The notes beneath the pieces were generated by a model. It did no database searches, was not told the DNA's origin, and saw only the letters and a program-made list of their open reading frames with translations. Below are positions 1-39,300 of a stretch of DNA of 64,000 bases, one piece after another; positions within the stretch are counted from its first letter, which is position 1; the number at the start of each line of letters is the position of its first letter. Both the position numbers and the translations under genes were made by a program. Origin of the DNA: Phoronis australis (taxonomy: Eukaryota > Animalia > Phoronida). The stretch covers positions 1,141,126-1,205,125 of the forward strand of contig NMRA01000046.1 of NCBI GenBank assembly GCA_002633005.1. Direction: 5' to 3'.

Positions 1-217
1 GTCAAATAAAGTAGACACTCCATGAACTACGCAGTGAAACGAACAGAATTGAACTGAACACTGAACTGATTTATTCTACATATCATAACAATATATATAC
101 ACACAACTACATAACAACATATGATGCGTTACCTATGACACACTTCCTATACCAGGAATCGCATGACATAATACCAATTAAACTACTGAACTCATAAACA
201 ATAACAACCTTCAAACA
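1..217 (-). mobile_element. possible LTR fragment, truncated by the window edge
   Basis: Minus strand begins TGTTTGAAGG at 217, is TG-rich and has an internal AATAAA, as is typical of LTRs. The other end is not visible. Confidence 0.3.
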
Positions 218-2928
218 TCCTGTTATTGTGTGACTAAGTACACAACACTGACCAGGCGCGCTCTTTTATTTAGGTAGAGAGCACACCAAGCGTAATTCAA
301 CACGCCCGTTATTTCTTGCGTTAGCGTTGTACCAACCTGGGAGAACAAGCCATGCTGGTTTGGAATTCTTTTTTGTCGGATATTTTTACTATCGCTTTCG
401 AAATGCTGTTAGTTTTGCCTTGGATGCAATCGGCATGACCATTCTCAAAACATTTTTGTTTCCTCTCGCCCTAAACTAACTGCTATGAGATGTGTCACTC
501 GGTACGTAATGCAAATTATTTTCCAATTTTCATTGTCGGAGCTGAGCTGTGCACATGTTTACGGCTGGTTACTTTCTGAAAAACAAATACAATTTTGACA
601 TACACCTTATAAGATGGTCGTCAAATTGACTGACGGGTCAATACGAATATCTGATAGTAAACTACTAAAACAAGTAAACGCCATTCTGTTTTGTTAAGAC
701 ATTAAGGAAATAAACAATTTTATAAAAAATCTAAACAGCAGTAAATTGTAGACATTTTAATGCATATTTTATAATGTGTGAGAAAATGGTTTAATAAAAC
801 ACTAGTTTATGAAAGTCACAAAATGGATGGTTTAGAGCAGTTAAATGTTTCAGAAAATGATTTTAGCTTTGCATTTTAGAGATACTTTGCACACCCTTAT
901 ATTACGACTTTCAACTTTTTAGAGTCTCATTAGTATATGACGAATTATGAAGTTATAATAAACTCATATTTCCAGAGTGACTGCTCAACCGCTGCAGTTT
1001 TGATTCCGTTTACAAGCGTTTTTGCGAAATAACGTTGGGTGGTATTTTGTAAACGCAAGAATCACTCTAAGGAAGCTAGTGTGATCACGTGCTTTGCTTG
1101 TAGTACATGGCGGTATGCGTGTCCTTTCGTTTTCACAAGATTCTCTCCTCTGCGGAGCACTACTATATCCCCACTGCGCCACCAGCACGTCACCGAATTC
1201 AATTTTTTCCTTTGTATGTCATCCGGATTCTGACTTCATCTTTGTTGATATATACATTATTATTGCTATAACTGTTTGTATAATATGTATGTCTATTGTT
1301 AATTTTTACCTCTTATTTCTCTTATCTGTTATTAATCTCTTATTTTGTTTAAGTTTTACATCTAATCTTCGTTAGTGCATACATTTATATATTATTTATG
1401 TATTTGTAAATTCATTTATGTATTTATTTATTTACTTAGTATTTTATGTATTTATGTTTATATTTATTTACCTATTTTGTAACAGATTTACTTTTTTACT
1501 GCTGGTTGTCTTTTGTCTTTCACCTGTTATCATTTTGTTGCTCATCTTTTTACGGAGCATAATGGAAATGTCTTTTACTCTTTATGTTATCCGGGTCTTG
1601 CGCTTGTACTTTTGTTATTTTTTGTTTTGTGTATTTATGTTTTTCTTTCATTTCTGTGCACTTGTGTGATTCTAATAAATTTATTATTATTTTTTTCACA
1701 ATGTTCATTTTTTGCCGAGATTCTGAAAAAATTCATAAAAATGAAAAATTTCACCATGTAAAAGAATCCAATACAATATTTTGTGTTACCATGTAACAAC
1801 AGGTGTTCCCATTAACATTGTCTCTTTGTTATGAAGATTGTTTTTGTCCAGCGTCCAGTTTCTTTAGTAATTTAACAAACGTAAAAATGTAATTGTTCCA
1901 TACAACCCATACAGTGAGATATTCGCATTGTATTTCAAAGTTAGATAACATATGTTTGCGCATTGTTATCTGTCAGAATAGCCCTACCTGCAAATTTCGC
2001 ATAGATAGTTGGAGTAATTAGTTTGTCACAATTTTTGTACATGTCCTTGCTACCTGAATTTTTGCTGAGGAATGTATTTACATCGAACGTTACTAAAATC
2101 TTTGCAACAGCCATGAGAAACTCGTATTCTAAAATCCTGTAGCAATCTTAAATCATTGAGACTGGTTCCTTGTTAGTTTAGTCATTTGCATTATCGATAC
2201 TCGATACTCGATGAAATTAATTAGTTGACTGATTAGTTGATTAATCAACCAGTTAATTCATAAAGGGTTTCGTTATTACACTTCTTGATATATTTTTCAC
2301 ATTTTGGTAACATTGTTCATTTTTGAATGAAAAATATTTGTATAACCTGTTAGTTATGCAGAATAACTCCTTTGAACTATATTACTCAAGCCCTGGAATT
2401 CCAACTCCTGCACGTGTCCTATGTATTCTAGTATTAAAGTTTGCGACCACGAGACTACCCCGAAAATTTGCATTGAGAACTTCCGGCTGCGTGCTCGACA
2501 GAGTTTTGATTGAGAATTGCAGTTATCGAATCAAGCCTAATTTCATTGCTTCATTTTCATCTTATGATTGTTTATTAAACAAGACTCTTGAGGGACGGTT
2601 CCATACATCAGCGATTCTTGGCAAAATAAGTCAACAAATCTGACAATTACTCTGGTCATTCTTTATAAGCATCGACTTGTGGCCCTGGGAGGATGCCGGT
2701 AGTAGTTTGGTCTCTGATATCTTTTCAGCTCCAGTCGTAGAACCACTTGGCGACAACCTATCACACTACATACCAGGAGTATTTCAACAAGACATTTTTG
2801 GGTGATAAAATCATGTTACAGTATTTTACGGAAAGGAGTTAGATTTGGCTTGAATGATAAGTTTAGGCCTTAAAAACAGGTGCGTTTATGTAACTTTTGA
2901 AAAATTACTCGTAATAGCTTAGCTAAGC

Positions 2929-3020
2929 GTGTGTGTAGTGTGTGTGTGCGTATGTGTGTGCGTGTGTGTGCGTGTGTGTGTGCGTGTGTGTGTCTGCGTG
3001 TGTGTGCTCGCGTGTGTTTG
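2929..3020. repeat. (TG)n/(TGCG) microsatellite
   Basis: Visible imperfect gtgtgtgcgt run. Confidence 0.95.
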
Positions 3021-3879
3021 GGTGTTATTATTTCTTTTTTATAATTTTCTACTATAATGCGTTTCTACAATGTTTACCTGTTGCCCAGATGCCGTTTTTT
3101 GTTAATTAGATTTCTGAGAAGTAGGCTTACCATTATCCATAGTATTTACCTTTATCCATGAAAAAATGAAAAGTTTACCTTGTAAAAGAACTAAGCAACG
3201 AGCATTAATTATTAATTGGCGAATCGATTGTAGCGGGTTAGTCACAGTGTGGCTTAGACTCGCTTAGGCGTTGCAGTAACAGAACATCAAATACTGCGTA
3301 GGATTCGTCCCATGTGGATTGCTTTACGTTACGCATATCAACTAAAAATAGATTATATGACGTATGTTGAAATATGGGTAGTGATTTGGTCTCGCTATCA
3401 TCAGTGTGGTGTAATTTTACTTGATCGAAACCTGTTTATACCACACATTTTGGCATTTTTCATCGTGTTTCTTTTGCAAAACAAGCTGCACAAACTCGCT
3501 GTTCACGTCGTAGTCCACGGCTTTTACTCCTTGAACAGAAAACCGACAAACTATGAGCTGAAAATTGGTAAAGTTGGGAATGAATTAGTCCACGCATTCG
3601 CTGGACATTCAAGACACACTCTGAGTCGTTCCATGTAATTGCTATAATTCATGCTGATCAGAAGCTTGATTACACCTATTTTTGTATCTACGTGCTGCAT
3701 ATGACTCTCAGAAAACAGTGATAACATTTGATACGACTTATCTTCACACGCTTTTGATTTTGACCACTTTTTTGCCGGCTCAAGAACAGCTACTGAAATC
3801 GGGCTCTGACGTCACTTGGCGCGCCAATCAGCGTGAGTCTTTTCAACGCAGGCTCAACTCGATACAGTTATCTACTTCG

Positions 3880-4135
3880 TTAGATAAAGTATTAAATGGG
3901 CTTTCATAAAATGTTTTTAATTTTTCGCTAAGACGTCTCCTTTTTGAATTATTTGAGATTTTCTGGTAAGGCTGTTCCTTTGTTGACTGATTTTGCTGCA
4001 CTTTTGTTGATTTACCTTCTGTTGAAGAAGACCGTAGTCTATTTCTTACTCATTTCTGACATCTTCGTTCGTCATATGAATGTTGTCATCATGTTCATCA
4101 TCGCCACCACCACCATCATCCTCCTGAACATGTAC
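3880..4135 (+). repeat. fragment of a dispersed repeat shared with 61845-62100
   Basis: Colinear matches: tttgagattttctg, gctgttcctttgttga, tatttcttact, tatgaatgtt, catcatcgccacc. Confidence 0.7.
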
Positions 4136-4201
4136 ATTCTCAATCTATTTATTCAATCGTGTAATATTACTGTCCTTGTGTGTAATGAAATTGTTTTTCA
4201 G

Positions 4202-4381
4202 TTCACGGAGCTTGGGGTGAATGGTCCTTAATAGGGGAATGTTCCGCCTCTTGTGCGAACACGACTGGCGTAAAGCCATATAACAGATCGTGTAACAATC
4301 CTGTGCCAGCCTATGGAGGAAATGGTTGCCAAGGAAATGCTGTGAGAGATGAAGTGTGCAAGTTGAAAACAGTATGCATAG
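4202..4381 (+). CDS. internal exon encoding a thrombospondin type-1 (TSP1/TSR) repeat
   Basis: ttttcag|...ATAG|gtaagt, phase 1-1. Translates (V)HGAWGEWSLIGECSASCANTTGVKPYNRSCNNPVPAYGGNGCQGNAVRDEVCKLKTVCI, with WxxW, CSxSC and RSCNNPxPxYGGxxC TSR motifs. Not in the ORF track. Confidence 0.9.
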
Positions 4382-4882
4382 GTAAGTTAAATTCACTGTG
4401 CTTAGCAGAGTAAAAGCGATTCCATTTCGGTTACCAATTCAAGCCACAGACAATGCGTATATGCGCATACTGCGGGGTTGGTTAACTCCAGTAAAATCGT
4501 TTTCTTGAGTCGCTGTTGGTTTCTAAGTTATTATGAGCAACGGCAATAGAATGTTGTCCCTATCAGGACTATTACGAGACAGATTTTATAAGAGTAAAAG
4601 ACTTAATTCGATTTTGATTTTAGACAGTTTAGCAGGGCGAAATGTATCAAGTCCATGACCCTTGCGCAACACTCTGGAGGGACAGGGGAAGGGAATTTTG
4701 TCCCAAAACTTAGTGCTATGGACAGAAGTTAAAAGTGATATGACCAGACTGCTATGGGGAACTACTGAACGTTCTGATTAGAAGGTTAAGCGCGATGACA
4801 TGACAAGCGGAAACGGTGGTTGTGGACGCTATCGGTAATATTACAACGAGTTTCTTTATTTCCATATTTACATTTATTACAG

Positions 4883-6696
4883 GCAAAGGTCGTGCAACGG
4901 TTTCCGCAGCGGCTGTAGCTCTTCCGCTTGTAGCGTTGTTTCTACTGGCTGTTGCTTTTGTGTGTTGGTACTACCGCCGTAGAAAACAAAAATCTGTCAA
5001 CCCTCATCAAGAAGAACTTATGCACCTGGAAAAGGAACATGCAACGCTCTTGGGCGACTTGAAAACTGCCAACGAGGCAGGTGAGGACAAAGGAATAAAA
5101 ACAGCGCTTCTCAAATACAGCCACTTCATCGGTCGTAACAGGCACGTTATCAAGCCAGACCGGGAGCTGCTGAAGCAGTCGAAGATGATTCTTGCCCACA
5201 AACGTATAATAGCTATGGCCAGTGGACGAGTGGCTGACGAACTGGAACTTGTCACGGACAACCTTAAGGAGGCTGTCAAAAACCACTACCAGAGTGACAT
5301 AGAGGAAGCATTGATTGAGTACAAATTTTTCTTTGAGGACAACAGCGACAAGTACGAGCCAGATAAAGAGCTTCTAGAACAGGCGGAGTCATTGTTGAAA
5401 GATGCTGACCAATTGGTGAGTGACACTCTTCGGGAGAGGTTGGAAGCCGCTAGGGTGGTTCTCATGTCAAGCATAGAGGCTTGCAACCCCACGGAGATCA
5501 AAGAAGCTCTGGCTAACTATGAGAGCATAATACTGGCGTTCCAGGGAAAGGTCGTGCCCGATGAGCACTTGATTCGTGAGGCGCATGCCATTCTTAATTC
5601 TAAGAAACTGCCCTATAAGTTGTTCAAAGAAAATGAGCTGCTAAAAAGAGAGTTGAACAAGGCAAATACGTCTAACGACGTGGCCACCATAATAGAGAAG
5701 TTGCATGCGTATGAGGTGTTCATACGAGAACATGACTATCACGAAGCTATAAAACTGGACGAGACCATCACACAAGAATCAAAGAAAATTCTTGCAGCGA
5801 AAGAGGTCATCAACGATACCATTCGCAACAGGAATCAGCAGCTACAGGAAGGATTAGAGAAAGCTTGTGATTCCAAAAATGAAAACGAAATTCAACAAGC
5901 CCTCTTGGACTATGAAAACTTCGCTAAAGAAGCGACAGTTTATACAATTGTCAATCATGACCTTATTACTAGAGCGATACGTATTGTAACTGCACACATA
6001 GAAAAACGCAATCTGCTGACCGCCGTGAAAAGCAGAGACCTGGGACGCATTCGGCTATGCTCTGCTATTATTGAAAAATGTGACATGGAAGAAGCCTTCA
6101 AGCAGGACATTTCTGTTGCTGAAGCAGTCGGTAAAGCATTGCAACATGTGGAAGAATTGAGAACAAACTTGATTAACGTTCGAGAGTCCGCAGTCGATAA
6201 CCTTATTGGAAACGAAAATCCTTCGAAGACTTTACAGGACATCGTACGTGCCACTCTGTTAATTCTAGGCAGCTCTGAGGAGGAATTGAGTAACTGGGAC
6301 ACATGTCGGAGACTGCTTCAGCCAAAGTGGAGTGATGAGTACCCTGGTTTCCTCATGCGTGTCGGAGAGTTCATTGTAAAATATCTTCACCCGGAGGTAG
6401 CCGTGCGTGTTCTTGAACTCTTGGAGTCATACACAGATGAGTTGGCGAAAGCGGAAGGGCGCAGCGTCTTCCCACTATACGCATGGTCTCGCGCCGTTGC
6501 TGAGCAGAGCCTCCTGGATCTCGAAACACGTCCCCCTGCGGCCACCGGCAGCAGGCAAGTTAGTCTTCTTCAAACAATGGCCGCGAAGATAGCAGAGGAA
6601 AAGGAGCGCACTTTAGCCGCCGTGCAAGCGCACCAAACGAGACGACGTAGTTCTGCTGCTCCCAGGTCATCTCGCCGAAGCACGCTCGTTGTTTAA
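4883..6696 (+). CDS. terminal exon of a type I membrane protein: TM helix, ~67-aa helical repeats, dynein-stalk MTBD-like C-terminal region
   Basis: Acceptor tttattacag|GC at 4883 is phase 1, joining the TSP1 exon in frame to ORF 4816-6696. Hydrophobic AAAVALPLVALFLLAVAFVCWYY is followed by RRRKQK. Stop at 6694-6696, AATAAA at 6942. Confidence 0.85.
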
Positions 6697-7929
6697 CGCA
6701 AGACTATATTTAGGAGAATTCGCATGAGAGGCAAACCTCGCTAGTGGACGGATACGCAAATCGATATGCTTATGACCCGTCGAAAACGACGTTGGTTTTT
6801 CGCAACAATTTTAGTGTGCCAATAACGGCATTCTGACCCGTTGTTAAACATCCATGGACAAACGACACTTCACTTCCGAACTCTCCCGAAACCTTTTCAG
6901 TGTTCTCACGAAACTGCATACAAGACCATATTTGTGTTTTGAATAAAACCGTTGAGAACTGCAAAGGCTTCATAGTTACTTCGAGTTGTTTCCTGTGAGG
7001 TAGATGGGGGTCAGGCGACATCCTGAAAGCTAGTGGCGGCACGTTTTCTTCGTGGATGGAATTGGTAACCTTAGAGGCATCATTTTACCAGCCACAGGGG
7101 TTTGGGGTCCAACAAGGGAAAAACATAGTGGGTGCTAGAGATTCCTAATTACAACAGTGTAAAAGTGATCGAGCTGGGGGTCCGATCCGGCTATGGACCG
7201 GGTACACACCTGTTTATTTATGAGATGACGATCAAGAACGTGCAGATAAAAATACTAAGCCTGGTAGAAGTCGCGGTCGCAGGTTATTGCAGACTTTCAA
7301 AGCAAAAGTAAGAGCAACGCGAAGCGATGTTACGCACCCACAAGCGATTTGTTGCTAGGGGTATCTGAAATAGGGAGAACTGACAAAAGTGTCGATACTT
7401 CGCCTTTTAAAACTAACATGAAATCAAAAATTAAGTAATTTTTTTTTATTTGCAACAAAGAGACACAATTAAGAATTCAAAATTAGCAGGTCTAGTCTAC
7501 TTTTCATCAGCAACAATCACGAGGTTTAGTAGATACAAAGATGGACAAGAAATGACATTAAGGGCACATAACATGCTATACTCTGCTCAAAAGTAGTAGT
7601 TGTAATCACTCCCAAAAGCGAACAAACACAAGCGGGAGCTGCAGTAGTCAAACTCACTCGAAAATCGACAGGCTTCGGTGCACTGCACCATATACCTCTG
7701 CTTCAACATTTCATTGAGATCCATCAATCGATTCTAGATCTAGATATCGTCCGAAAACGCTCTTCCTCCCAAGTAAAAATGCCAATACCATAATAGCCAC
7801 TAGCGTGTGCTACAGAGGTCAAATTCACCCAAAGTGGAATTGTGCCGGCGCATTGCTGTCATATCATTGAGTTTGTTTAACTGAAATCTATCAGTGAAAT
7901 TCCGTAGATCGTATCCGGAAACCTCTCCC

Positions 7930-10103
7930 TTCTAAATACTGAAAAGTCGCGTCCCTGGACCTATTCAACATTACCACGACGACGGCATCAAAACCAGTTA
8001 CGAAAGAAGATTTCGTAAAAGCGATCCCAGATATATTCAGTGACAAGGTGGGAAAGCTTGAAGGGGGCACCGCATCAGACTGGGTGACTGTGTGCCAGCT
8101 GTACAACATGCACCACGCAGGGTACCAGTGCCCCTCTGGTAACTCTTGAAAGCGAATCTGGAGGTTCTTGACAAGGATGGGATCATTGCCCCGGGTTGAA
8201 GAGCCCACGGAGTGGATCAACTCTATGGTTGTTGTCCGTAAAAAAGACAATGACCTGCGCATCTGTTTGGACCCCAAACACCAGAATGAGGCCATTCTAC
8301 GAGAGCACTACGAGATGCCAACTGTGGAAGACATAGCTAAAAGATTACACAGCGCAAAAGTATTTTCCGAGCTCGACGTGACCAAAGGATTTTGTCATGT
8401 ACCTTTAACTGAAGGTTCATCCCCGTTGACAACCTTCCACACACCCTTTGGGAGATATAGATGGCTCCGTCTCCCCTTTGGAATAAAGTCAGCTCCAGAA
8501 GTATTTCAAGGGAAAACACACGACCTTATACAAGGTGGCGTTGAGGTTCAGGCGGACGACTTCCTGGCAGTCGGTTTTGGGGACAATAGAGAAGGAGCTG
8601 TACGTGATGACGACAACACTTTCTCTACATTTTTACAACGATGCAAGGACAAGCATGTGGTACTGAACCATAAGAAATTCAAGTTTAGGCAATCCTCAGT
8701 GGAATTCATCGGTCACATAGCCTCGGACAAAGGTATTCAGTAAACTCCAAGCTGTTTTGAAAATGCCGTCTCCAGAAGACGTCAAGGGTGTCCAGAGACT
8801 CTTAGGCATGGCACTTGGGTAAGTTTTTGCCCAACCTCTCCGTATTGTGGAACCTTTGAGAGCACTTACAAGAAAGTAAGTTCCTTGGTACTGGGATGTG
8901 CAAAATGGCAGGCGTTCGATAAACTCAAGCAGGCTATCGCAATTACACCCGTTTTGCGATACTACAACCTGGATGAAAAGCTGGCGATAAAGTGCGATGC
9001 ATCCCAGTCCGGACTTGGCGCAGCGCTGTTACAGAATGGACAACCGCGCGGCCTACGCATTTCGAGCACTTACTTCTTCGGAGCAAAACTATGCTCAAAT
9101 CGAGAAAGAGCTAAATTAGCCATTGTCTTTGCCTGTGAGCTGTTCAATACGTACGTCTATAGAAGAGATCATGTGACAGTCAACACAGGTCACAAACCCT
9201 GGGAAATGATTGAGAAGAAGCTCCTGTATCAGCGACCGAAAAGGCTACAGCGCATGTTCCTAAGGCTGCAGAAATATGCATTAACCATTACGTACGTTAA
9301 AGGAGAGAGCATATTCTTAGCGGATACTCTACGTAGAGCATGTCTGAAAGATACCTGTGAGGTGAAAGAGGCAGTGACTATCAACCATGTAGAAGAATCT
9401 GATGCTTGACAACTGACCTTTGGAGACAGCAGAGTCAGCCGGAGACCCAGTTCTTTGGTAGTTAAACAAGATGGTTCATGCTGGCAGGCCAAGCACACGC
9501 AGCGCAGATTCGCAGGTTCTACGTCAATACTTTGGTATGCGCGACCAGCTGGTGAGCGAAGGACCCTTGATGTTTTGAGGATGCAAAGTGACCATTCCCA
9601 GGAGTATGAGGAGGCAAATGTCGCAACTGCACTCAACACACATTGAAATAGATTGGTCTATTCGACGGGCTAGAGAGTCCATGTACTGACTGAGCAGTGA
9701 CACATGTCTGATCGATCGAATCAACCAAGGGAGACTATGATGAGAGATCCAATGATATCCTTACCATGGGCGAAGATTGCGGCTGACCTGTGCGAGTTCA
9801 ATGGGAGACCTTTACTAGTTGTCTTGGTGAATTTCTACAGCAATTACATAGAAGTCGCCAATTTGTCTTCAACGACATCCAGAGCTGACATCAAAGAGAT
9901 GATAAGGATCTTCGATGTGCATGGTGTTTCCCAAGCGGTCTTTGGCAATAATGGGCCTCAGTTCAATACAGCCGAATTTGCAGTGTTTGCAGCAAATTTG
10001 GAATTTTGTGCATAACACCTCATCTCTTCGTTATGCACAATCCAACGGCAATGCAGAAAATGCAGCGGTTGTTCAAGAAACGTCAGTCGGACAAAACCTC
10101 AAA
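7930..10103 (+). mobile_element. Ty3/Gypsy LTR retrotransposon pol remnant (RT, RNase H, integrase N-part), frameshifted
   Basis: LRICLDPK, TTFHTPFGRYRWLRLPFGIKSAPEVFQ, ADDFL (RT); CDASQSGLGAALLQNG (RNase H); PWAKIAADLCE, NNGPQF (integrase). Confidence 0.92.
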
Positions 10104-10396: not shown

Positions 10397-13300
10397 TGAT
10401 TGCCTCTTCTGTCACAGAAAATGAGGTAAACTTACACTAAGAACGGGTAGTAGAAAACAAATATATATAGTAAACACAGTGCTAATAAGTTACTATGGCG
10501 TTAACAAAGTAGCTAAAATCAGTCATAAAGCCAATCGTCCGTTTGCCAATGAGGTTTGTGGCGCAGCCGTTGCCGTAGAACCAAGCTGGCGGGATGCATC
10601 AGGGGGAGGAACGATGGTGGATGGCACAGTTGGGGCGGCAAGTGGGCCACGTGAAGGTAGTACATCGTTGTTGCACCATGGAGCTGGATCGCAGGACGAG
10701 TTCAATGATGAAACGGATACTGGAACAGCGGACGGTGGGAACTCGTCGTCGTGATCGTGGCCACAAGGGGCAGTGACAGGTGATGCAGCTGGAATGTCAG
10801 TAATCTCTGACGGAACACAGTAACACTCGCTGCGTTTGACACTGTAAGAAGCATTACGTAACTGATCTCCAGAAAATTTACGAACACTCAACCACACGCC
10901 ATCGGAAGCAACCACGAGGTATCGTGGACGGGCTCTGCTTTTGTCCCTATCAGAGTAGAGGTAAACGATATCGCCGATGGATGCGTCGCATTCTACTTCC
11001 TGGTTGGCCAAAGGAGCCTTGGATCGTGCACTGGGTCCATGGTTGATGGAGCGCCGTTGTCGTTAGGAAGAGATCAACAAGTTGTCATGAACTGGTATTT
11101 GGCAATTGGTGAACTGGTCGCGCTGAAACCACATCTCTCTGGCAGACAATCCGGTGGAGCGAAGGCGGCTGTTCAATCGAGCAGCAGCTGTAAGAAACTG
11201 ACATTGCCGGCTCCATGCTGATCACGCAGTAACTCGTGTGACAACTCCGCCGTCTAACGAGCGCAGTTCGAGACACATTTGGAGACCATTTCGAAGTTCC
11301 TCGTGGCGTTCAGTAGCAATGATACAAGCCGCTGTGTAAGAAGAGACACAATCTCGGAGTACCAAAATCAGCTGTCGCTCGCGCTTCATGACGTCAGCTG
11401 CAGACGACGTCCCAACGGTCGCAGGTGTATCAGAGGTACTCTGCAGGGTCGTGGTTTTGGGGAAAGAGCGCATTGATGTGAGCTAGCTTGTAAAGTACCC
11501 ATCTCCCAAATCCAGCCGAGGACTTCTGTGCGTCGTGGGGCTATGACTCTTTGTAGAAGATAGACGGAGATCAGCCGTGGACAATGCATATAGCACCCTT
11601 TTCCAGTAGGTAATCAAATCTGTGATAGTCTGACCACCACAGTATAGGTCGCCAGCGAGCTTGGTGACGGCTCTTTCATCCAAAAGCTCTCCCAATACAC
11701 GACACTTCAACTCTTCCAAAGCAGTTTCCAAACCGGGCATACCCATGGCGCAACGTGCGTAGACACGGATACCTCGGAAAGGTGTGGATACGCCACAATA
11801 TTTCATGGACTCTCGTGACAAAGTAATTTGATAGAATGCACTCGTAAGATCAGTCTTGATGATGAACTTCCATTGAGCAATCTTCCGAAGCACGGAATCT
11901 ACGTCAGGCATGATAGATGGTTGGGGCTTGGCGTACCGGCCGACGTCTGAAAATGCTGTAACTAAACGAAAACCTCCGTGGGGTTTCTTGACTAGAAACG
12001 AGGGATTAAGATATTCTACTGTAATACCGACATCCTCTGGACGGACGAATACTCCCAGGAGCTCCAGCTCGTTGAATTTTTGTTGCAATTACAGGAGCTT
12101 GTCCTTGGAGTATTGGGGGAGGCGACCTTTCCTCTGTGGAGGTTGCGTAGGACCCATGTTGACAACGGCCTCAAACAGGCCTGCGGCGCCGTTGTACCCG
12201 GGGTATTGCGGATCAAATACGTGAGCAAACTCTCGATGCAGGGCGTGGAATCTGTCCCGATCAGCAGCATGCAGGATATTGTCGGGATCAACGGCAACAA
12301 AGCGATGATGATCCAAAGTAGTTTTAGGGGATGAGATACATTGGGTGGCTGTCGGGGATTCAGATGGAACCTCTGAAGGAGTGAGCACGGCGTGTACCTG
12401 GAAAAACTGCCCATCTCGTCGCAAAAATCGTGGTTCATCGGTGTTGTTGAACAGGCTAATTTTGCCATTAGTCGGAGCAAGAATGGCGGGTTGTGGCCAT
12501 AGCTGTGAAACACCCGTGGAGCGGAGGCTAATGCTGTCGCAGCGAGGTTCGATTGCAAGATGTTCTTCAGGATCGGTAAAATCGGACGGGGCCTCCAACT
12601 CAAGACAATCACCAGGTCAGATGGCTGTCGCGTGAGGTGGAGCACGTAATACCTGGGACAGTCGTGCTGTGAGTCGTGGGTATTGGTTTACGGGTTGGCC
12701 ATAAGTGTATGTAGATCCGTCGGCCAATGTGATAACCTTACGAGCAGGTCGTACTGAAATGTCGCTGTAAGTCATAAATGGGGTTGCTGCCAAGACGTCT
12801 ACCTCAAGAGACTTGATAACAAGACCGTGAAAAACGAAGGAATGCTTGTCACGTGTGAAGACAAGTCGAGTTTCCCCCACAACCTGTACAGTAGATGTAC
12901 CATCGGCCTGGAAGGCGGTTTGGGAATTTTTACGAACTTTCGCGCCCAACGAACGCCGGTGCACACGATGCGCTCATAATCATGTTTCCTGTGGCACCAC
13001 AAACAAATGTCAAACGCACGGGGGTTTGACCAACAAATGTGTCGAAATAAGGACACTGGACTATGTGGACGCGAAGTCAGGGCAGAACTGCCCGCAAAAT
13101 ATAGTGTCTTGAGCGAAGTCCTCCTCGGTGGCCTCGTCAACGTCGGTGAACCGGGCCTTGAGAAAGGCGCGCTTGTCGTCAGGTGGGAGGAAGAGGCACC
13201 GAAACAAGAAGTGATCTGAGGAAGTGCGGCGGGCGGTGGTGCATAAGACGCACGACGGGGTTCTACGGCGGCGAGGGGGGGGGGTTGTCTTCGAGCTGGT

Positions 13301-13631
13301 TATGCGCATGGAGCGAGTGTCCTCGATGCACCTAAGCTCATCAAGTAGTGAGTTCATAGCTTGAGAAATTTCAGTCTTGATGGAGGCAAGGGACTTTTTT
13401 GCGCAACATATCGTTGGGGTGTCATCGGGGTCGTCGGTCAGACCACGCAGTGGAGCAGCGGTTGTCTTTTTTAGCCAACTAACGCTGTCGACAAGAAATG
13501 GCGCAAAGTGAGGCTCCAAGGAAAGGATGTATAATAAATTCTGCCTCCAGCTATCAAATGAAGTAATGGTCTCATTTTTAGTGAGCGGCCACTGTTTTGG
13601 AGCTCGGGTTGTAGCCATGTCACTGCCACCA

Positions 13632-13754
13632 CGCCAGATAAACTAGAAAAAGTGTTGTAAGTTTAACAAGTTTAATTCGCAGCCGACAACACAACGAGGT
13701 CGAACCGGAAAGGCTCTCCCCAAACACAGTCGTACGAATAACAATGCAATGGCG
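13632..13754 (-). repeat. 5' LTR of the inner Gypsy element
   Basis: Direct repeat of 10275-10396, followed on the minus strand by PBS-like TGGTGGCAGTG and then the gag ATG. Confidence 0.85.
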
Positions 13755-15369
13755 ATAATAGTTTATGAAATATAAAAAAAGAGGGACTTGTCCAGAGGCT
13801 CTCACTTATAAACTTAACTCTGATTTCGGAAAAAGCGTCGCAAACTAACAAAAAGTGATATTCACACAATTCCTCGAGCAAATGTACACACTCTGCCTTT
13901 ATATATCACATTTACGTGACGACCAGCTTGTACTGCCAGTCTGTGGTTTGCACATCGAAAACATGTAAAACTTTGCACGAACACTCTTGGAAGATTTTCA
14001 ATTTCTAAACAGTTTTCATATTTAAATGCAACCTTAATTTTTTGTAATGGTTTAACTTAGAATTGGAATCAACATCGGGCTGCCATCTTTGCAAGGCACA
14101 GTCCTTAACCCGTTGCGAAAAAATATTTACAAACTAATTTTGACGGGCGACTCCTTGGTTTATCCAAAAATCATAGAAACCATACATTGACAATAAATAG
14201 AGGACTGAGGTTGCCCAATTATACATATGTCTACCATTTTCATCTAGTCTGTACAACATGTTGTAAGCGCCCTTGGATAACGTTCCTGTGGCATATTCAA
14301 AATTTTAAACCAGTAGTTAATACAGCTAACAAAGTATCTCGTAAACATAGGGTATCTGCCAAATTCACCCATTACTGCAGCGTTAGAGCAAGAACTGCTA
14401 AGTCCCAGGGTCCATTTACAAAGTTTAAAATGAATTTTTTCAAAACACTCGTATCAAATAACTGAAAGGCACGTGATGCAGCTTTATTTGCTTGACAAGA
14501 AAGAGTTTTTGTCGCTTTCGACCATGACAATTTAGGTGTGATAAAAACACCAAGATATTTATGAGATACAGCATCAACTTGCTGCTTGTTAAAAAACATT
14601 TCTCATAGTGTCTTAAGGGACCTCCATTTCTAAATACAATTATTGTGGTTTTCTTTAAATTCACAGCCATACCCCATGAATCACAATAATCATTGAGATA
14701 ATTCCACATACGTTGCAAGTTTGACACTGTTAGAGAGAACAAAACCATGTCACCTGCATATAATAGTGAATTAATATTTGTAGCATGTTCATCTAAGTAG
14801 ATGCTATTTATATCACAACGTGAATTTAGTTTTTCTAAAAACTCATTGAGATACAAAACAAATAGTAGAGGGCTTATCATACAGCCTTGTCGAGTACCAA
14901 TAGTGTAATTAAATAAGTCTGTTAAACCATCACGTGTTTTAACACATGATCTCAACTTGCTATACATTGATCACAGAATTGATAACACATTACCATGAAC
15001 ATTAATTTGCATAAGTTTATGAAAAAGTAAAATATGTAGTTCTCGATCAAAAGGTTTTGAAAAGTCAATAAATGCACAATACAATCTGCCAAACTTTTTG
15101 CTTCTGTGTTTCTGACATATCGCATACAAAGAAAATATATGATCCATTGTTGCGTAACCTTTGCGGAACCCTGCATGGACTCAAAAAGTTGACCATTACT
15201 TTCTGCCCAGTTGTACAATCGGTTGTTCAGTATTCTGGTAAATAGCTTCCCAACAGCCGAAAAATACCTCTATAATTATTCTCATCGTCCACGTTTCCTT
15301 GTTTAAACAACGGAATTAACATCGCATCACACCAAGCCTGGGGATAGGAACCTGACTGGAAAATTACGT

Positions 15370-21300: not shown

Positions 21301-24300
21301 ACAGCAATTACAACGAGTATCAAATGTCATGTTTCAACAACACAGATTATTTCTCAACTGAATCTTTCAACACATGATACATTGGGCGACTATAATTGGA
21401 TGACAACTGTTGTAATGTGAGATGTTGAGCAAGACCTCCCACAAGACTGTGCTGGCACTCCTTATAACACAGGCTTGGCATTAACACCATTCTACTTATA
21501 TTTGTTCTGAATCTTCAATGCAGGAGTCCAGGAAGTAACCTTGGAGGTGTAACATTATTAACACTGACAATTATAATAACAGATCAAACTTTTGCATTAG
21601 AAACTTAATAACGTGACTTTTACGACTATGAATACAACTGAAAACTCACGTCTTTTCCAGGTTGGAAAATTAACCCATCAGTTTCATGACTGACTTGATC
21701 AGCAAATCGTCCATGCAGTAACTGTGAAAAAATCATAAACAACTTGCTTTCAACATACATTGACAATAAGTAAACATACAACAATAAGAATGAAAGTACG
21801 ATGTTAGCCATCAAGAATAAAAAATTATAAGTGAAAACATTTTAAGATTATATTGAACTCTACAAAAATGCCCAAATTTGGCGAACTGCAGAATATCATA
21901 ACTCAGAAACAGCTGATCCGGTTCTTAGGAAACTATCAGATACTATGCTTTATGCACGTTAGGAAGTGTTTTTAAAGGTAATTACACATAAAGGGCTATC
22001 AAATAGTAGGACTTGATTGTTTTGAAAAAAATTCATGTTGCATAAAATGAAAACAAAATCAAAACTTAGAATACTCTACTATCATTTTCGAGATTTCATC
22101 TTGACTATCTTTATCAAACGAAATTTGGTGGTCAATATTGATTTCTAAGAATGTACATTTTTTATTAAATTTTACTACAAAAACTAGGTCACATGAATCA
22201 ATTAATGACAGATGAAGTCAAAATAAAATTCCACAGGCTTTCTACTTTTACCACATACACACTTTTACTGAGTTAAAATCAACACTTTTGCAGATATTTG
22301 GCTGAATGCAGACTTGTCGACAAGGTCCTTCATAACCCTAACAAGACAACAATACTAGAATTAGGAATAAGCAGATTTCTTTCTGTCTTCAAAAAGTCGG
22401 CCAAATGTAGATAACTGTAACTTGCTTACTCTGCTACACATCAACCAAACTGACAGTAAATCAGTGATAAACAAAGATGTATCTAGAAAATGACACTGGT
22501 CCTACACCAAACCATCATGTGCCATCTGTTGATGTCAAAAAGAATCAAACTTTAAAGAGTTCACACCATGCATTTTTTATGCCAAATAGTCACGATTTTT
22601 TAATTTTGAAGAAAAGTTAGTTATTTCGAAATTTCCCGCCAAATGATGTAATGGGCGGAAGACATTTGGTCACTTGACAATCAATTGTAGTGACAGAACA
22701 CAATAGATCAGAAGACGAGGACAATTTTGAGCGAGAACTGGACAATTATTATGCAGACAGAGAGAAGAGTGGATGCGAGCATCACACTCAAGTACTTGAA
22801 GAATCAGACAATGAATTTGACTTTATACTTAGTGAACTTTCGTTGGCTTTGAGGCCGTATGAACTTGACCCACTTAAACGAGAAATGCTAAAGACATATG
22901 TGAGCCACAACCAACTGAACCAAGGGGTGGTCAATATTCACAAAATAGACACTTGATAATGATTGACAAAGGCCACAGTACACCTGGGTCACTCGCATTC
23001 ACTATTGCCATGATGGAATGAGCAGTCTAAACACAATGTTGTAGCACTCAATCTTTGGATGGGTTTAAGAGCCTGGCATTACTAGCCCTAGAATGATTCC
23101 TTGACATGTGCCCCAACAAAGTGTGGCTTTCGACTGAATCGCATGTTCCAAACTGACATTCCATAATCTAGTGTGGTGCACAAACTGATATAGACCGGTA
23201 GCCCAGAGCACTTAGCATAGATGAACGAGGTACCAACATCTGATCACGGGAGCATTTAGAGTCCACCTCAGTATGTACAGAAATGAACGTCTGCCGTTGT
23301 CTGCACTCTGGGTGTGACCCCTGGGGGCCTTACAAAGGGCCCAAAAATGAGCTAGACTAGATATTCGAGGTACCAACCAAAACTGATTTAAAATGAACAA
23401 TAGCACCGCACTGAACACCGAATGACCCATGACAGACAAATCTCTTAAGATGCATTAATAAAATTCTTCTTGAGACACAAGGTCACGGTGACTTCGACAA
23501 AAGTGACAGGCCGGTGGTAGGCCTACTTTTCGGAGCATAAAATGACTGTTAAGATCTCGCCTACTTGTTAAGCCTGGTCATCAAGCAATGCTAAAATGTC
23601 AGTTCACGTCTTTCTGTTATACAACACAATTTCACGTCAGAATATTTTGCGATTGGGCGCGGGTGTTGACACGGGGATCCGATGTCTCCATATCTCTACA
23701 TACTGTGCGCAGAGATCATGGCAATTATGGTCCATCAGAATTCGAAAATTAAAGGCATTTGTATTGGGAGCAGATCTCATAAAATAATGCAGTATGCCGA
23801 TGATACAGTCTTAACTCTTAATGGGTCTAGCGACTCTCTGAATGAAACCCTGAATCTTTTAGACCAATTTTCAAGTTCTCTGGACTAAAACCTAATTTAG
23901 AAAAAACAGAATGTGTGGATAGGGTCTATGAAATACAGTGAGGTTATGCCCTGAGAGAGAGCTACTTTGGAGAAAAAAATACTTCACCACACTTGGTATT
24001 AAATTTAGTCTTGAGCTGTCTGAAATAACCACATTAAATTATGAAGAAAAGATCAGTGAAATTGAAGGTGGTCTCAGGACATGGGCCAAAAGAATCTTGA
24101 CTCCCCTGGGAAAAATAACTGTAATTAAATCATTTATGATTTCCAAGCTAACTCATTTGTTTATTGCATTACCTTCCCCGTTACAGGAAACGATTCAAAG
24201 ACTAGAAAAACTTTTCTATAATTTTGTATGGGATGGTAAAAACGATAAAATCGGTCGAACTACGTTAATTCAAAATTTCACGCATGGAGGCTGTAAAATG

Positions 24301-27300
24301 ATACACATTAGCTCTTTCATCAAATCTTTAAAGGTTTCACGGTTTCGTAAAATAAATTCATGTAGTGAAGAGTTGTGGATGGATATTTTGACTCAAAATA
24401 ACTTTTTTAATACCCATCGTAACTACTTGTGCTTTGGCACAACATTTTATGAGATCTGGTCCAAAATATTTCAAATTTGTTCTGGAAAGAGATATTCTCT
24501 TACATTAAAGAATTTTTGAGTAAATTTCCGGTAAAAAGAGAAAATATTATATATGAACCTTTGTGGTACAATTCTAATATTTTGGCAGGTAAAAGACATT
24601 TATACGTATTATAGAAGGTGGTATGAGAAAAATATTGTATTTATTTATGACTTTTTAGACTCTAATGGGACGTTTATGAATTATGAAACTTTCTGTAACG
24701 TACATGATTTTTCTCCACCCTTCACTGAATACCTTGGTCTTAGGAGTATATTACGACCATATCTAAAAGATAGTAAAGGTCACGTCTTTCAAGTTACTTT
24801 ACCTAATTTTCCTCATGTATTCTCTAACACCCTATTTTGCCAAAAGCCAAATAAATTTATCTATGATACTTTAGTCTATCAGCTATACAGAAAACCAAAA
24901 TTTGAGTTAAAATGGGAGATGGTGTTGAATTTGCAATTATCTGAAGAATGGTGGAGAAAAACCTACTGTTGCTCTGTAGACTTCACATCTGATACAAAAC
25001 TAAAATGGTTTCAAATTAGATTGACCCACAGAATTTTAAGTACAAACACTTTTCTCCATAAAGTTGGAGTTACTAACTCGCAATTGTGCACCTTTTGTAA
25101 AAAGGAACCAGAGGACTTAATTCATCTCTACTGGTCATGTCATGTTGTGTGTTCCTTTTGGTCGGCATTATTTCGATGGATCGACCAAAAATTAAATATA
25201 ACCTTAAATCCTGCCATCATCGATATCCTTTTTGGTAAGCATTCTTAATCAAAAGTAATAAATCTAGTATTGATATTGGGTAAATATCATATATATCATC
25301 GTAGGTTAGAAAAACGCTTGCCCTGTATTGATCATCTCAAGGCAGAGATATATGAATATTTCAAAATTGAAAAATACATTTTTGCCAAAAATTGTGAACT
25401 TTTGGAATTTCATAAGAGATGGTCTCCTATGGTTCTTTTGTTTCATTGACTGGGGTTACAACTAAGATTTAGGCTCCCGGAGTGAATGAGTGTATGAATG
25501 TGTATATTCCCTTTAAATTTAGTATATGTTTCACGCTACTTATGGATGAATAAATGTTCAAAAAAAAGTCAGTTCTTCCCAAGCCACAGAAATCACTTCT
25601 TATCTCAGTAAGAAAAATATTGACGACTGTGAAGCATATTTATAATGGAAAGCTGTTTAAACGAGAAGTTAGTTTTTTGAGTAGGGTTTGATTAAAGTTT
25701 GACACAATGAGCCAAAGAAAAAGCTGAACAGAAAAACAATAAGAGGTGTTAGTACACTGAGTAGAACCTACACTTTTGGCAGCTGAAATGTCCCAAAATG
25801 GTTTGGCGCGAACACTGAATGGTTCTTTAGTTTTGTCAAGATTCCCTTTGATGATCTTCTCGTGCCTCGGACCAATGATTTCTTTGTTTATACAAGTAAG
25901 CCTTGTACCAAAGTCAGTTCCACCTACGTCAATTCCCTGTAAATAAATGCATGCTTGTAGTTTATTAAACAACAGAGACATAGTAAAAAGCAATACCCAC
26001 GGACTTAAGCTGTTTGCTTGAATAGCATAAATATAGATTATTACATGTTCTCAGTTGCTATACCCCTTATGTAGAGCCCTCGTAGATTTTGGAGAATTAT
26101 TGCCCTCGGAGCGTTAATTCATACCACATACTGAAGAGAAATACTGCAATGAATCGATCTACCTTTCTCGACTTGCGTCGGCTTTGTAACTACTTTCTAT
26201 GTCAGAGGTCCGGGGTCGGTGGTCGTGACCTTTTAAAATAGCCGAGCTATTTTTGTCAAATAATGCTTTTACTCAAAACCAATCGAAATTTTAAACATAA
26301 CGGAAAGAAAGTGAATCTATAAAACTATTCTAGCTTACTACACATTTTATCACGCTAAGCTTTGCCCAAGAAAGTATCGTCTGCTAAAGTAGGTTACCAC
26401 TGGTAACTGAGTATAATGCTCGAGTCGAAGGATCTCGACGACACGATACCCGCATTCAAATTGAAGATCGGTAATTTACAAGTGAGAGAAAATGAGAGAT
26501 AAATTTCACTGAATTAAAATATCTTTCTTATAGAAATTATGTATCTTATTTTTCATAGCGTATAAATGTAGATACAATGCGCTTTGTTGAACATGCAATT
26601 GTAGCGCACGCTCATTTAAGTATTCTATTTTCACATTCGATGACGTCAGCCCATGAGTGAGGCAGTGGTAAAGTCGACGACTCGAAACTCTTGTGGACCG
26701 GGTTCAAAACCAGCCTCGATTCCCGCCAAAATGTTATTTCACAAGTGAGATAACTAAATGGGTTATTACATGGTTGTATTGGCCATTAGAGGCAGATTTT
26801 GTGGCATAATGATCAATTATACATCATATCTACATCTGGATTAAAACACAAAAAGTTCAAGAAGAATTTGGCAGGATTTGCAACAAGTACTTCTGAAGTA
26901 TTACAATCCATCTGAAAAACAAGAGCACCATGGAACGTTGAAATTCACCCATGACAGTAGTGCAAATGTCATGCTTCAAAGAGTTTTAAACATAAGATTC
27001 CAAATTAGATGGAGCAGAATACGTGAACCCATCCAACAAGACTAATAGGGAGCGCTGAAATGCACCTACGGCAGCACCACCAATGATGTACTTCTATAGG
27101 CATGTTTCTTTATCATAAATATGGTTATTACATGGCGCAAAATATGTTAAACCTGTCCGAAATTTGGAAGGTAGCATTGTCATCTGCTGCCATCTCCATA
27201 GGAGCACATCAAAGTACTTGAACCCATCTGAAAATCAACATCAGGTGTGGCTTTCATATCAGGAACACAACTACCAATTTTCGTAATGATCCAGCGGTAT

Positions 27301-36300: not shown

Positions 36301-39300
36301 GAACAACACCGGTAAGGCTAAAAAAGCGCGAGAACTTAAAGTGGAAGTTGCAGGCTAATTCTTTATCTCTGTGATTACTTAGCCAAATCATATAATAAGG
36401 ATGTGAAAATGATCCCCTATGTTGAAAATTGCCAAACATCTTAAAGAATGAGTTTTGTGGTGAAAATGATCTGTTGCATATCACTCAACCGTGTCCAGTA
36501 AGTATTGTGAGGTGGTGTTGGGAATAACACTGCATGATGAGGGCTATGTGAGCCAGCGCAAGGTACGTCATTAGTGCAAAGGTCACCTACGGTATTTGCA
36601 AAATTTTTGATTTTCTCATTTACAAGTTGTTTTTTTACAACTGGTTAATGAAGTCAACTGCACTTTGTTTAGCATAGATTATAGCACTGTTATTTAGTTC
36701 CTGACCTACATTAGCACACTTAGAAACATGCAAATATATCTTTCAACAATAAAACCTGAAGAATTTTACTTTTGATTTTTTAGAATCTGTCTAGAACTAG
36801 TAGAATTTTAACAGAAATGAAAGACTGACTGATGGCAAGAAGTTGATTATAACAAAGTAGCAGATTTAGGGGTGGGGAAAAACTGAAAAAAATAGCAAAA
36901 ATGACATGAAAATAAACGTTTCACCTAATTGTGGGCGTTTACTTTTAGACAGTGTGGGTGGGTGCGTGTGTTGGGGGGTGCTGGTATTGGAACTAAACAG
37001 ACCACAGTAATTTGATCAAATTTAATTTGATGGGAATGTTTAAGGACAGATGTCAAACATCCTGTTGCATTTTTATAAAACATTTTGCACTTCGTTTATG
37101 CTGCTTTAATGATAATTGTCAAAGCCGAGAATGGAACATTTTACGAACAATTCCTATTAGCAGCATGGAGAACATTACACACAGCATAGTATATTTCTAT
37201 TTCTCAGATGTGACGTTCCGAATTATATAAATTTGGAGTTTTTCTAGAGTCAATTTCTACAAGAAAGTTTTGTGAGCATTAGGTGTATGAACCTTTTTGA
37301 TCCGAAGTGGTAATGAAACGCATTCTTTTACCTGATTTGTGAACATTTGGATGACACTTAAAGAGAATCAGCATCAAGTAACATAATCAACTAAAGGTGA
37401 CTGCATTTATGGCTTGTTTTGCTTTCAACACACCTTATTTTTGATGGAAAGATCGATGATTTTTTAATTGATAAAAAGTATTGGAGAATATCGGGACAGG
37501 GTATCATTGGCTAGGGAACTGTGGGATGGGAATGTTGGGAATACAGGTACATACCCATATTACTCCTTAGGACTAACTAAAGACAGCTCAGTTAACTAGG
37601 TAAAGATGATAGTCTACTGGCAAAACTCAAGGTTCCTGTACGTAATCTGATTGTGAGCAATACACACATACGAACACGCACAACAAATTCAATGAACTCA
37701 TCCAATGAGATATATGATGAATGCCCACATGGCTCATGTCACAAGAATCAAGAAAATTCAATTTCTGACACAATATTGGAGTCCTAAATTTTAGACATTG
37801 TAACAAATGTTAGACACAGCATCATATTGAATATATGTAACCATATGTAATGTTCTCCATAAAACTCTTAGGAAAAGCTTGACTTTGCAAAAATGGTAAT
37901 TCTGTGATTTTTACTAAAAAATTGAAAAGTGCATAAAACAACCACCCACGAAACCAGAATTAAGCTTACCTTTTTTACCGAGATTGAAAAACACATTGTA
38001 TAACTGACCTATAATTTTCATAAGACACTTGTTAGCTGAGACTTACTAATGAAGAAATATTTATCAAGATTGTAAATTGCTTTATTTCTGCACTGCAACT
38101 CACTCTCCAAGAGGAGTCAGAATGACGAATGACAAACTGATCTTGATGTTAAATACTGATTGGCACAGTATCCGTCAGGGCAAGTGTCCCAATGATGCAC
38201 GACATTTTGGGTAGATGTCACAAAATCAGAGGGTGCTAAGGTATTCCAGGAAGTGAGTATTGGGATAAGTGTGACAGATCTTTATGTAATGATTACAGTT
38301 GACAGGAAGCTGCTCTGTGTGCATGCCTGGTAGAGATGGTCGTGATGGTGTACCGGGCAGAGACGGTCGTGATGGACAGAAGGGAGACAGGGGCGTAACT
38401 GGATTTGCTGGACCAAAAGGAAGTCCCGGGCTCAAAGGTTCATCTGGTGCAAAGGGGATGCAAGGGCAGAAGGGTTCCCCTGGTCGTGGGATGCCTGGTA
38501 TTCATGGAGAGCCAGGACCGCCTGGATTAGATGGTCGCAAAGGAGACAGAGGATTAAAAGGAGAAACTGGCATGATAGGCAGAAAAGGAGACAAAGGATA
38601 TCCTGGTCCACAAGGTAAAAGGAAAGCACAGGCAATAAATATAGTTTACAAATACATTATTGAAACCAGATAATAACACATACTGTATCAAATGATATTT
38701 TTATTTTTTGCTGTTCTCCTTAATATTTCTTTAAAGGCATTATGTGTGTGTGCGTGCATGTGTGTGTATGTGTGTGCGTGCATGTGTGTGCGTGTGTTTG
38801 GAATCATATATACAATGTATAACACTATATATTATATAAGGTAAGTAATGACAACTATGGGTAATTATATTGAGATATACGATGTGCAAGCCGAAAAATG
38901 AGAAAAAAATCGTGTTGAATGCAAACTACTATCTTTATTTCAGGTACAACATCCAGCTGCCCACCGAGAAACATCAAGCAGTTCACATGGAATGAAGAAC
39001 ACAGTGATGACACTGGTAAACTCAAGGTAACATAATAATTTTACAAATTGAACAGTCTTACAACTCTTACAAGGGTAAAAGGTGGTAAAAGACTAAACAT
39101 TTAGATTTGGTACTGTGAACATGGGTTTGTTGGCACAGCCACATGTGCAACCAACAGTGAGATAAAACAACCTACACAGTCCTTAAGATAAATATAGATT
39201 ATTACATGTTCTCAGTTGTTATCCCCCGTATTCTAGATCCTGAGTGGATTTTAAAGAATTATCGCCCGAGGTGCGTGAGCCCGAGGGCGATAATTCTCCA

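Follow-up and report, generated by a model that had tools for sequence, protein, structure and literature searches.

A probable TSP1-bearing membrane receptor gene of Phoronis australis with a tail predicted to end in a degenerate dynein MTBD-fold domain

Introduction

The microtubule-binding domain (MTBD) of dynein is usually treated as part of one motor. The locus described here, from the phoronid Phoronis australis, raises the question of whether a cell-surface protein may carry such a domain without the motor, and whether that domain could still grip a microtubule. The window analysed is a stretch of 64,000 nucleotides of intron-rich and repeat-rich animal DNA (contig NMRA01000046.1), and an earlier note on it had proposed that a TSP1 repeat is joined to a membrane helix and a long cytoplasmic tail ending in an MTBD. 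The reading favoured here, with a little more than even confidence, is that of a spliced, expressed single-pass TSP1 receptor whose tail ends in a degenerate docking domain of the MTBD fold.

Gene structure and transcription

Four RNA-labelled runs with the same species label were aligned to positions 1-8000 of the window. X5, X6 and X7 come as raw reads from a single study, about one fifth of them being taken in, and X8 consists of contigs that were taken as RNA by guess. The gene has the following parts in the window.

2729..2879, plus strand: minor cassette exon, 151 nt (AG/GT ends and translation; TGA in frame after 24 codons)
4202..4381, plus strand: TSP1 repeat exon, 180 nt (Pfam TSP_1 and RNA depth)
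4382..4882, plus strand: intron, GT..AG, 501 nt (junction reads; zero depth in bins 4417-4732)
4883..6696, plus strand: coding part of the last exon, with the membrane helix and entire cytoplasmic tail, ending in TAA (603 open codons, RNA depth)
6697..6947, plus strand: 3' UTR to the AATAAA at 6942 (signal and fall in RNA depth)

The TSP1 exon is in phase 1 at both ends, and its joint to the last exon (4381->4883) is crossed by 19 reads (14 starts) in X5 and by 8 reads (8 starts) in X6. The proposed in-phase splice of the TSP1 exon to the membrane exon was borne out by these reads and by the GT..AG ends, and the junction that the earlier note had named for an RNA-seq check was found in both runs. 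RNA depth is 25-33 over the TSP1 exon (two bins mostly or wholly inside it) and 12-52 over the last exon in X5 and X6, and falls from 20-27 to 0-1 past the AATAAA. First mates on the last exon lie almost all on the minus strand in both runs which, as in usual stranded libraries, corresponds to a plus-strand transcript. Exons, splice and expression were observed in two of the three raw-read runs; X7 has no depth on the last exon (4883-6696), so expression differs between samples of one study and the gene looks tissue- or stage-specific. X8 contributes a single short piece (6542-6758).

In most reads the TSP1 exon is preceded by an exon that lies beyond the window (16 in X5 and 21 in X6), and the cassette at 2729-2879 is skipped. 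This upstream exon is in the same frame as the TSP1 exon, with its last ten codons open as judged by eye in the phase-1 frame, and its end reads, also by eye, Cys-Pro and then Val-His-Gly. Cys-Pro before Val-His-Gly is the usual link in tandem TSP1 repeats, and the exon appears to end like another such repeat. As it is joined in frame, the ectodomain is longer than the part within the window.

The cassette is linked to the same upstream exon by 7 X5 reads. Its joint to the TSP1 exon (2879->4202) is crossed by 4 reads in X5 and 3 in X6, with a further 4 short reads in X5, and the cassette is included in 11 of 48 informative reads, roughly a fifth. Its inclusion would truncate the protein upstream of both the TSP1 repeat at 4202-4381 and the membrane helix, and the product could be decay of the transcript or a secreted ectodomain. 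The cassette sits in repeat-like sequence. It had been missed previously, as had the upstream exon or exons and five repeats in the tail that are described below.

Other features of the window are as follows, the first of them lying just downstream of the receptor gene.

8150-9406, plus strand: broken LTR-retrotransposon pol (Pfam RVT_1 and RT_RNaseH in separate frames)
10500-13650, minus strand: several open frames that resemble, by eye, a second broken retroelement (two scanned, no Pfam match)
14443-14970, minus strand, and 23932-25245, plus strand: LINE-like fragments (RVT_1, E 7e-15; zf-RVT, E 1e-6)
38293-38670, plus strand: collagen triple-helix exon of another gene (Pfam, E 6.5e-18)

Ectodomain, membrane helix and tail

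The last exon encodes the following segments.

4906..4974, plus strand: single predicted transmembrane helix (Kyte-Doolittle scan)
4975..4992, plus strand: basic stop-transfer cluster RRRKQK (sequence)
5026..6000, plus strand: five tandem helical repeats of about 66 aa (self-diagonals against shuffles)
5998..6168, plus strand: sixth helical hairpin, conserved in the family, leading into a helix at the place of the dynein CC1 entry (profile and model)
6169..6513, plus strand: predicted degenerate domain of the dynein MTBD fold (family profile, hhalign and model)
6535..6558, plus strand: short motif PA-x(3-5)-RQ past the MTBD-like domain (pattern search)
6640..6693, plus strand: basic, Ser-rich C-terminal end (RRRSS, RRST) with a hydrophobic last triplet (sequence)

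The TSP1 exon matches Pfam TSP_1 at E 1.6e-6 (28.7 bits, cut-off 21.6) and its repeat has six cysteines, a WxxW motif and two N-glycosylation sequons. In the last exon the Kyte-Doolittle 19-mer peak is 2.79, and this is the sole segment above 1.5. By the positive-inside rule a basic flank marks the cytoplasmic side of a membrane helix, and because RRRKQK follows the helix the C-terminus should lie inside. The hydropathy peak and the 603 open codons agree with the helix, stop-transfer cluster and cytoplasmic tail that had been proposed, and a TSP1 repeat in frame with one membrane helix and a basic inner flank fits a TSP1-containing type I receptor. We infer type I topology, with the N-terminus beyond the window, and the TSP1 part would be expected to bind a ligand or matrix.

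It is very improbable that the main product is no surface receptor at all, but either a soluble tail whose translation starts at nt 5020, the first Met past the membrane helix, or an internal-membrane protein. Such a product would fit the location of the start codon and signal peptide beyond the window and the lack of any Met between 4202 and 5020, but the reads that enter the TSP1 exon mostly do so from the same-frame upstream exon with its TSP1-like end, and a six-cysteine TSP1 domain is known to need an oxidising compartment.

For the tail, the best ungapped self-diagonals lie at offsets 131, 68, 66, 134 and 197. In 200 shuffles the best score averaged 35 and never exceeded 62, against a top score of 73 for the tail itself; the five repeats give pairwise z of 1.6-10.8. 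Units 2 and 5 also match a profile of the repeat of the relatives described below (E 5e-6 and 1.6e-4, for one sequence), and the sixth hairpin matches the family profile at E 2.3e-10, with helices at 43-68, 71-83 and 91-115 of the model. No known signalling domain was found in the tail by Pfam (best E 0.03), and neither the transglutaminase-like core nor the Ig-like KY domains were found by Pfam in the two exons of the window. The Pfam scan of the 603-aa gene-ending exon likewise gave no AAA family, in agreement with the earlier statement that AAA motor sequence is absent. The C-terminal end at 6640..6693 may offer kinase sites and a PDZ-type ligand.

Homology to the dynein MTBD

Direct searches with the P. 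australis protein did not find dynein: there was no match to Pfam MT (PF12777) at E<=1, no dynein among PDB entries by phmmer, and a BLASTP E of 0.96 against a dynein fragment. The Pfam MT match that had been suggested as a check therefore failed. HMMER against 1.84 billion representatives returned 29 relatives (E 1.8e-18 to 8e-4, 20-28% identity), all of which (E<=0.001) have their best stretches on the C-terminal half of the P. australis exon. One of these, P0001 (Pinctada, 1437 aa), is a KY-like model with three tandem MTBD-like modules, possibly the result of tandem genes fused into one. Because of the three copies it was kept out of the tree; alignments A1 and A2 also lack it, and counts below are therefore given out of 28.

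A profile of the P. australis protein with 12 short relatives of the 29 (alignment A2) found the yeast MTBD as its best PDB match (E 1.6e-11). By name or length, dynein heavy chains and MTBD constructs fill the first 55 PDB rows, 45 of which have E<=0.001; among them are several labelled just AAA+ protein and one, of dynein length, that bears the label of a radial-spoke protein. The 29-row profile gives the same result, with E 1e-9 to PDB dynein. Against a set of 5.8 billion sequences the sole match of the family profile (one of 7,987 candidates) was the dynein fragment, to which hhalign aligned 105 columns with a probability of 94.8% and E 5e-8. Five of the 29 relatives match PF12777 at E<=0.01, one of them above the cut-off. 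Scored against a profile built without it, the P. australis protein reaches 60-62 bits (E 1e-20 for one comparison) and the dynein fragment 32; in the leave-one-out comparison the P. australis protein is lowest at 62 bits, the other members scoring 80-144. Its domain keeps the core residues, namely two invariant Trp, and the Pro, Leu-Leu/Ile and Gly.

These profile comparisons demonstrate that the family of helical hairpins with an MTBD-like module is homologous to the dynein MTBD. The homology is solid at the level of the family and is carried to the P. australis protein by its membership, and the resemblance at 6169-6510 is beyond chance by way of the relatives, although a direct search fails to show it. 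The claim that this region follows the MTBD pattern stands for family-profile homology and for the predicted fold described next, and falls for a direct match by Pfam MT or phmmer.

Predicted structure

The AlphaFold2 model made with the 29-row alignment has a pLDDT of 93.5 and a pTM of 0.83, and leans on that family alignment. When compared with 48,161 chains, its top five matches were dynein stalk or MTBD entries (Z 16.9-12.1), and it matched the six-helix MTBD fold of eleven dynein entries at Z 12.1-16.9. The fit to yeast MTBD 6KIO has Z 12.9 and an rmsd of 2.4 A over 126 residues, that to mouse 6RZB Z 13.4 and 2.9 A over 137 residues, and six isolated MTBD entries fit at 2.4-3.1 A over 124-138 residues. 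Foldseek also ranked dynein first, at E 0.014 or weaker, whereas a single-sequence model (pLDDT 73) brought no dynein row in the structure search. The structural match to dynein MTBDs for which the earlier note had proposed a search was thus obtained with the alignment-based model, while the Foldseek ranking did not reach a significant E-value. Integrase core-binding domains, the best match of the single-sequence model (Z<=6), were rejected as generic helical matches.

The model places a 25-residue helix before the domain and a 16-residue helix after it, with hairpins preceding. It has no long antiparallel CC1/CC2 stalk, and its rmsd to whole stalks is 10-17 A.

Tubulin-contact residues

In the available part of PMC7042235, yeast dynein makes salt bridges to tubulin through K3117, E3122, R3124, R3152, R3159 and R3201, and mutating the basic residues among them lowers affinity more than two-fold. 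With the register taken from the profiles and confirmed by hhalign, the P. australis domain keeps none of the six and has two of them charge-reversed, the corresponding residues being E (nt 6184), N (6199), I (6205), D (6298), Q (6319) and A (6451). The 28 aligned relatives keep two (15 proteins), three (eight), four (four) or five (one). Direct microtubule binding, as had been inferred from the MTBD pattern, is on this comparison not supported so far.

All three helix-1 contacts are missing from the P. australis domain. The helix-1 glutamate, which the accessible text of PMC4298687 describes as the switch of the dynein-microtubule interface, is present in 28/28 relatives and the Tyr that follows it in 27/28; P. 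australis has Asn in both places. Its helix 1 has also lost the charge type at three of the four positions that, as far as PMC4046564 could be consulted, were jointly mutated to alanine in a 'weak' yeast dynein. The net charge of the domain, -5, is joint lowest of 29 (relatives -5 to +10, dynein fragment +5).

At five other positions, which were picked after the sequence had been seen (yeast 3116, 3155, 3156, 3200 and 3204), P. australis has basic residues in 5/5 and the 28 relatives in 0-3. All five are neighbours of the lost contacts, within or adjacent to helices 1, 3 and 6. Positions 3155/3156 match the H3 pair R3423/K3424, given in the part seen of PMC7042235 as alternative tubulin partners in Dictyostelium, and 3204 is K3472 in the Dictyostelium numbering of the section seen of PMC4298687, the offset of 268 being taken from the numbering in these portions of the two papers. 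In yeast dynein K3116 and K3204 are dispensable, according to the same part of PMC7042235. On sequence grounds the five basic residues make weak microtubule binding possible. In addition, R3159 and R3201 are each kept in only 2/28 relatives, and since the relatives mostly lack them the yeast contact list may be the wrong yardstick for this family.

The tail could then tether microtubules directly at adhesion sites, with the rearranged basic residues of the MTBD helped by avidity from receptor clustering. The fold and core residues are kept, the five basic residues at helices 1, 3 and 6 include the Dictyostelium-type H3 pair, and the last 59 residues, with a net charge of +6, could add contacts to tubulin tails. 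The three lost helix-1 contacts, including the universally kept glutamate, the two reversed contacts and the net charge of -5 argue the other way, as does the lack of a motor or long stalk to set a high-affinity state, and direct tethering is in our judgement possible but rather doubtful. Among the relatives, the best candidates for true microtubule binding may be P0002 and P0005 (Ridgeia), small proteins consisting of the module only, with 5/6 and 4/6 yeast contacts.

Distribution and divergence of the module

The relatives with named taxa come from molluscs, annelids, a flatworm, a brachiopod, lancelets, tunicates and a hemichordate. Eleven of the 29 are KY/hillarin-like with the module at the end. 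Membrane helices are found in three, of which two are CD20-like and come from lancelets and the third is a hemichordate protein with EGF repeats. The sequences point to a mobile invertebrate module that is not unique to the P. australis gene. TSP1 had no Pfam match in any of the 29, and orthologues with the same TSP1 domain order, which had been proposed as a test, are absent among them. The earlier remark that the architecture belongs to no named family needs qualification in that the hemichordate EGF-repeat protein shares the order of outside part, membrane helix and module, whereas the TSP1 version was not found among the 29 relatives. The PA-x(3-5)-RQ motif is common to 8/28 relatives, of which the six named ones are annelid, mollusc or flatworm, and hints at the source subfamily.

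Word-based searches over 7,994 candidates with the whole exon and over 2,234 with the domain gave no homologue in either case, and no close orthologue appeared in these or in the set of 1.84 billion. The P. australis protein is the most diverged member found (branch 1.9 against a median of 0.65), and is unplaced in a mostly unresolved tree with 3/27 branches starred. There is no second copy of the module within the window. Such divergence, and the absence of a close orthologue from the searches, would suit a passenger domain that drifts under relaxed selection in a receptor working through its ectodomain, repeats or C-terminal peptide. Against this, the frame is intact over 603 codons, core residues are kept, and three allelic differences in the last exon from the raw-read runs, among those listed, are all synonymous, with a chance of about 1-2%; a fourth, in one contig, alters the last residue. 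We consider drift of this kind quite unlikely.

Interpretation

The favoured reading remains a docking receptor. TSP1 repeats would lie outside the cell, the chain would pass the membrane once, and a cytoplasmic arm of helical repeats would be capped by a domain with the predicted MTBD fold. Because the helix-1 contacts are gone, stereospecific tubulin binding has probably been lost, and with the gripping residues lost the domain likely docks other cytoplasmic partners or grips microtubules weakly; at most a weak affinity would be expected. Such a gene may have arisen when a ready-made tail bearing the module was joined to extracellular exons, and the placing of the membrane helix and whole tail in one exon with a phase-1 intron flank would fit exon shuffling. 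A broader proposal, which we put forward only tentatively, is that invertebrate adhesion-type receptors (TSP1, EGF) took over the dynein grip without the motor and keep microtubules bound directly at the membrane, the interface in P. australis being rewired, centred on helix 3 and helix 6 and placed at the tip of the helical-repeat arm.

The MTBD is seen here as a mobile module that forms the end of invertebrate proteins of several kinds: KY/hillarin-like ones, small stand-alone ones and at least four in the membrane. If the receptor-borne copies bind microtubules, they would make a direct link from the surface to microtubules that needs no adaptor; if the degenerate copy does not bind, it forms with its intact relatives a natural pair for testing which contacts are needed and which other partners are bound. 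For hillarin-like proteins, the module offers a way to test a link to the cytoskeleton.

Comparison with known systems

A literature search, covering few subscription journals, found no report on this receptor architecture or on a non-motor MTBD, and nothing usable on the radial-spoke and Toxoplasma chains discussed below. Papers found under the term 'MTBD-like' concerned a TTLL11 motif, which was set aside as unrelated to the dynein MTBD. Our verdict is that the TSP1-receptor architecture with a degenerate MTBD is new.

With the dynein heavy-chain MTBD (PF12777 middle; 6KIO, 6KJN, 6RZB, 3ERR, 5AYH) the P. australis domain shares the predicted six-helix fold and stubs of both stalk helices; unlike dynein it has no AAA ring, long coiled coil, Pfam MT match or yeast contacts, and is attached to a membrane protein. 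The KY-like/hillarin-like proteins (XP_069137733.1, CAH1267568.1) have the same terminal helical hairpins and MTBD-like module, together with a transglutaminase-like core and Ig-like KY domains that are not in the P. australis exons. In contrast to P. australis, the 11 KY-like proteins have no membrane helix and keep the helix-1 glutamate. Leech hillarin is, in the part available of PMC3081291, an axon-hillock protein that acts with septins.

Similar designs are those of Saccoglossus XP_077867321.1 (P0022), in which outside EGF repeats come first, and of the Branchiostoma CD20-like P0013 and P0019, in which membrane helices come first; as in P. australis, the module is at the cytoplasmic end. 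These three have EGF or CD20-like parts instead of TSP1 and keep the helix-1 glutamate. No five-repeat arm was detected in them, and they are not grouped with P. australis in the mostly unresolved tree.

Single-pass receptors with TSP1 (UNC5, semaphorin 5 and THSD7, and apicomplexan TRAP/MIC2) have tails that are thought to be coupled to the cytoskeleton. From their generally known features, P. australis shares with them TSP1 outside and one membrane helix, and to our knowledge none of them carries an MTBD fold.

The model also matches non-motor chains, namely Chlamydomonas radial-spoke 7JTK chain C (Z 11.5) and 7JRJ chain I (Z 7.7), both of which we take to be RSP2, and the Toxoplasma intraconoidal-microtubule chain 9YA2 chain L (Z 9.8). 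Residues 1326-1494 of 9FQR chain Xl, which is axonemal and by its numbering apparently not dynein, match at Z 10.0. Radial-spoke heads stand clear of the tubulin lattice. The radial-spoke and Toxoplasma chains are parts of ciliary or apical complexes and not receptors like the P. australis protein, and on the strength of the model the reuse of the MTBD fold outside motors appears to have a structural precedent in them.
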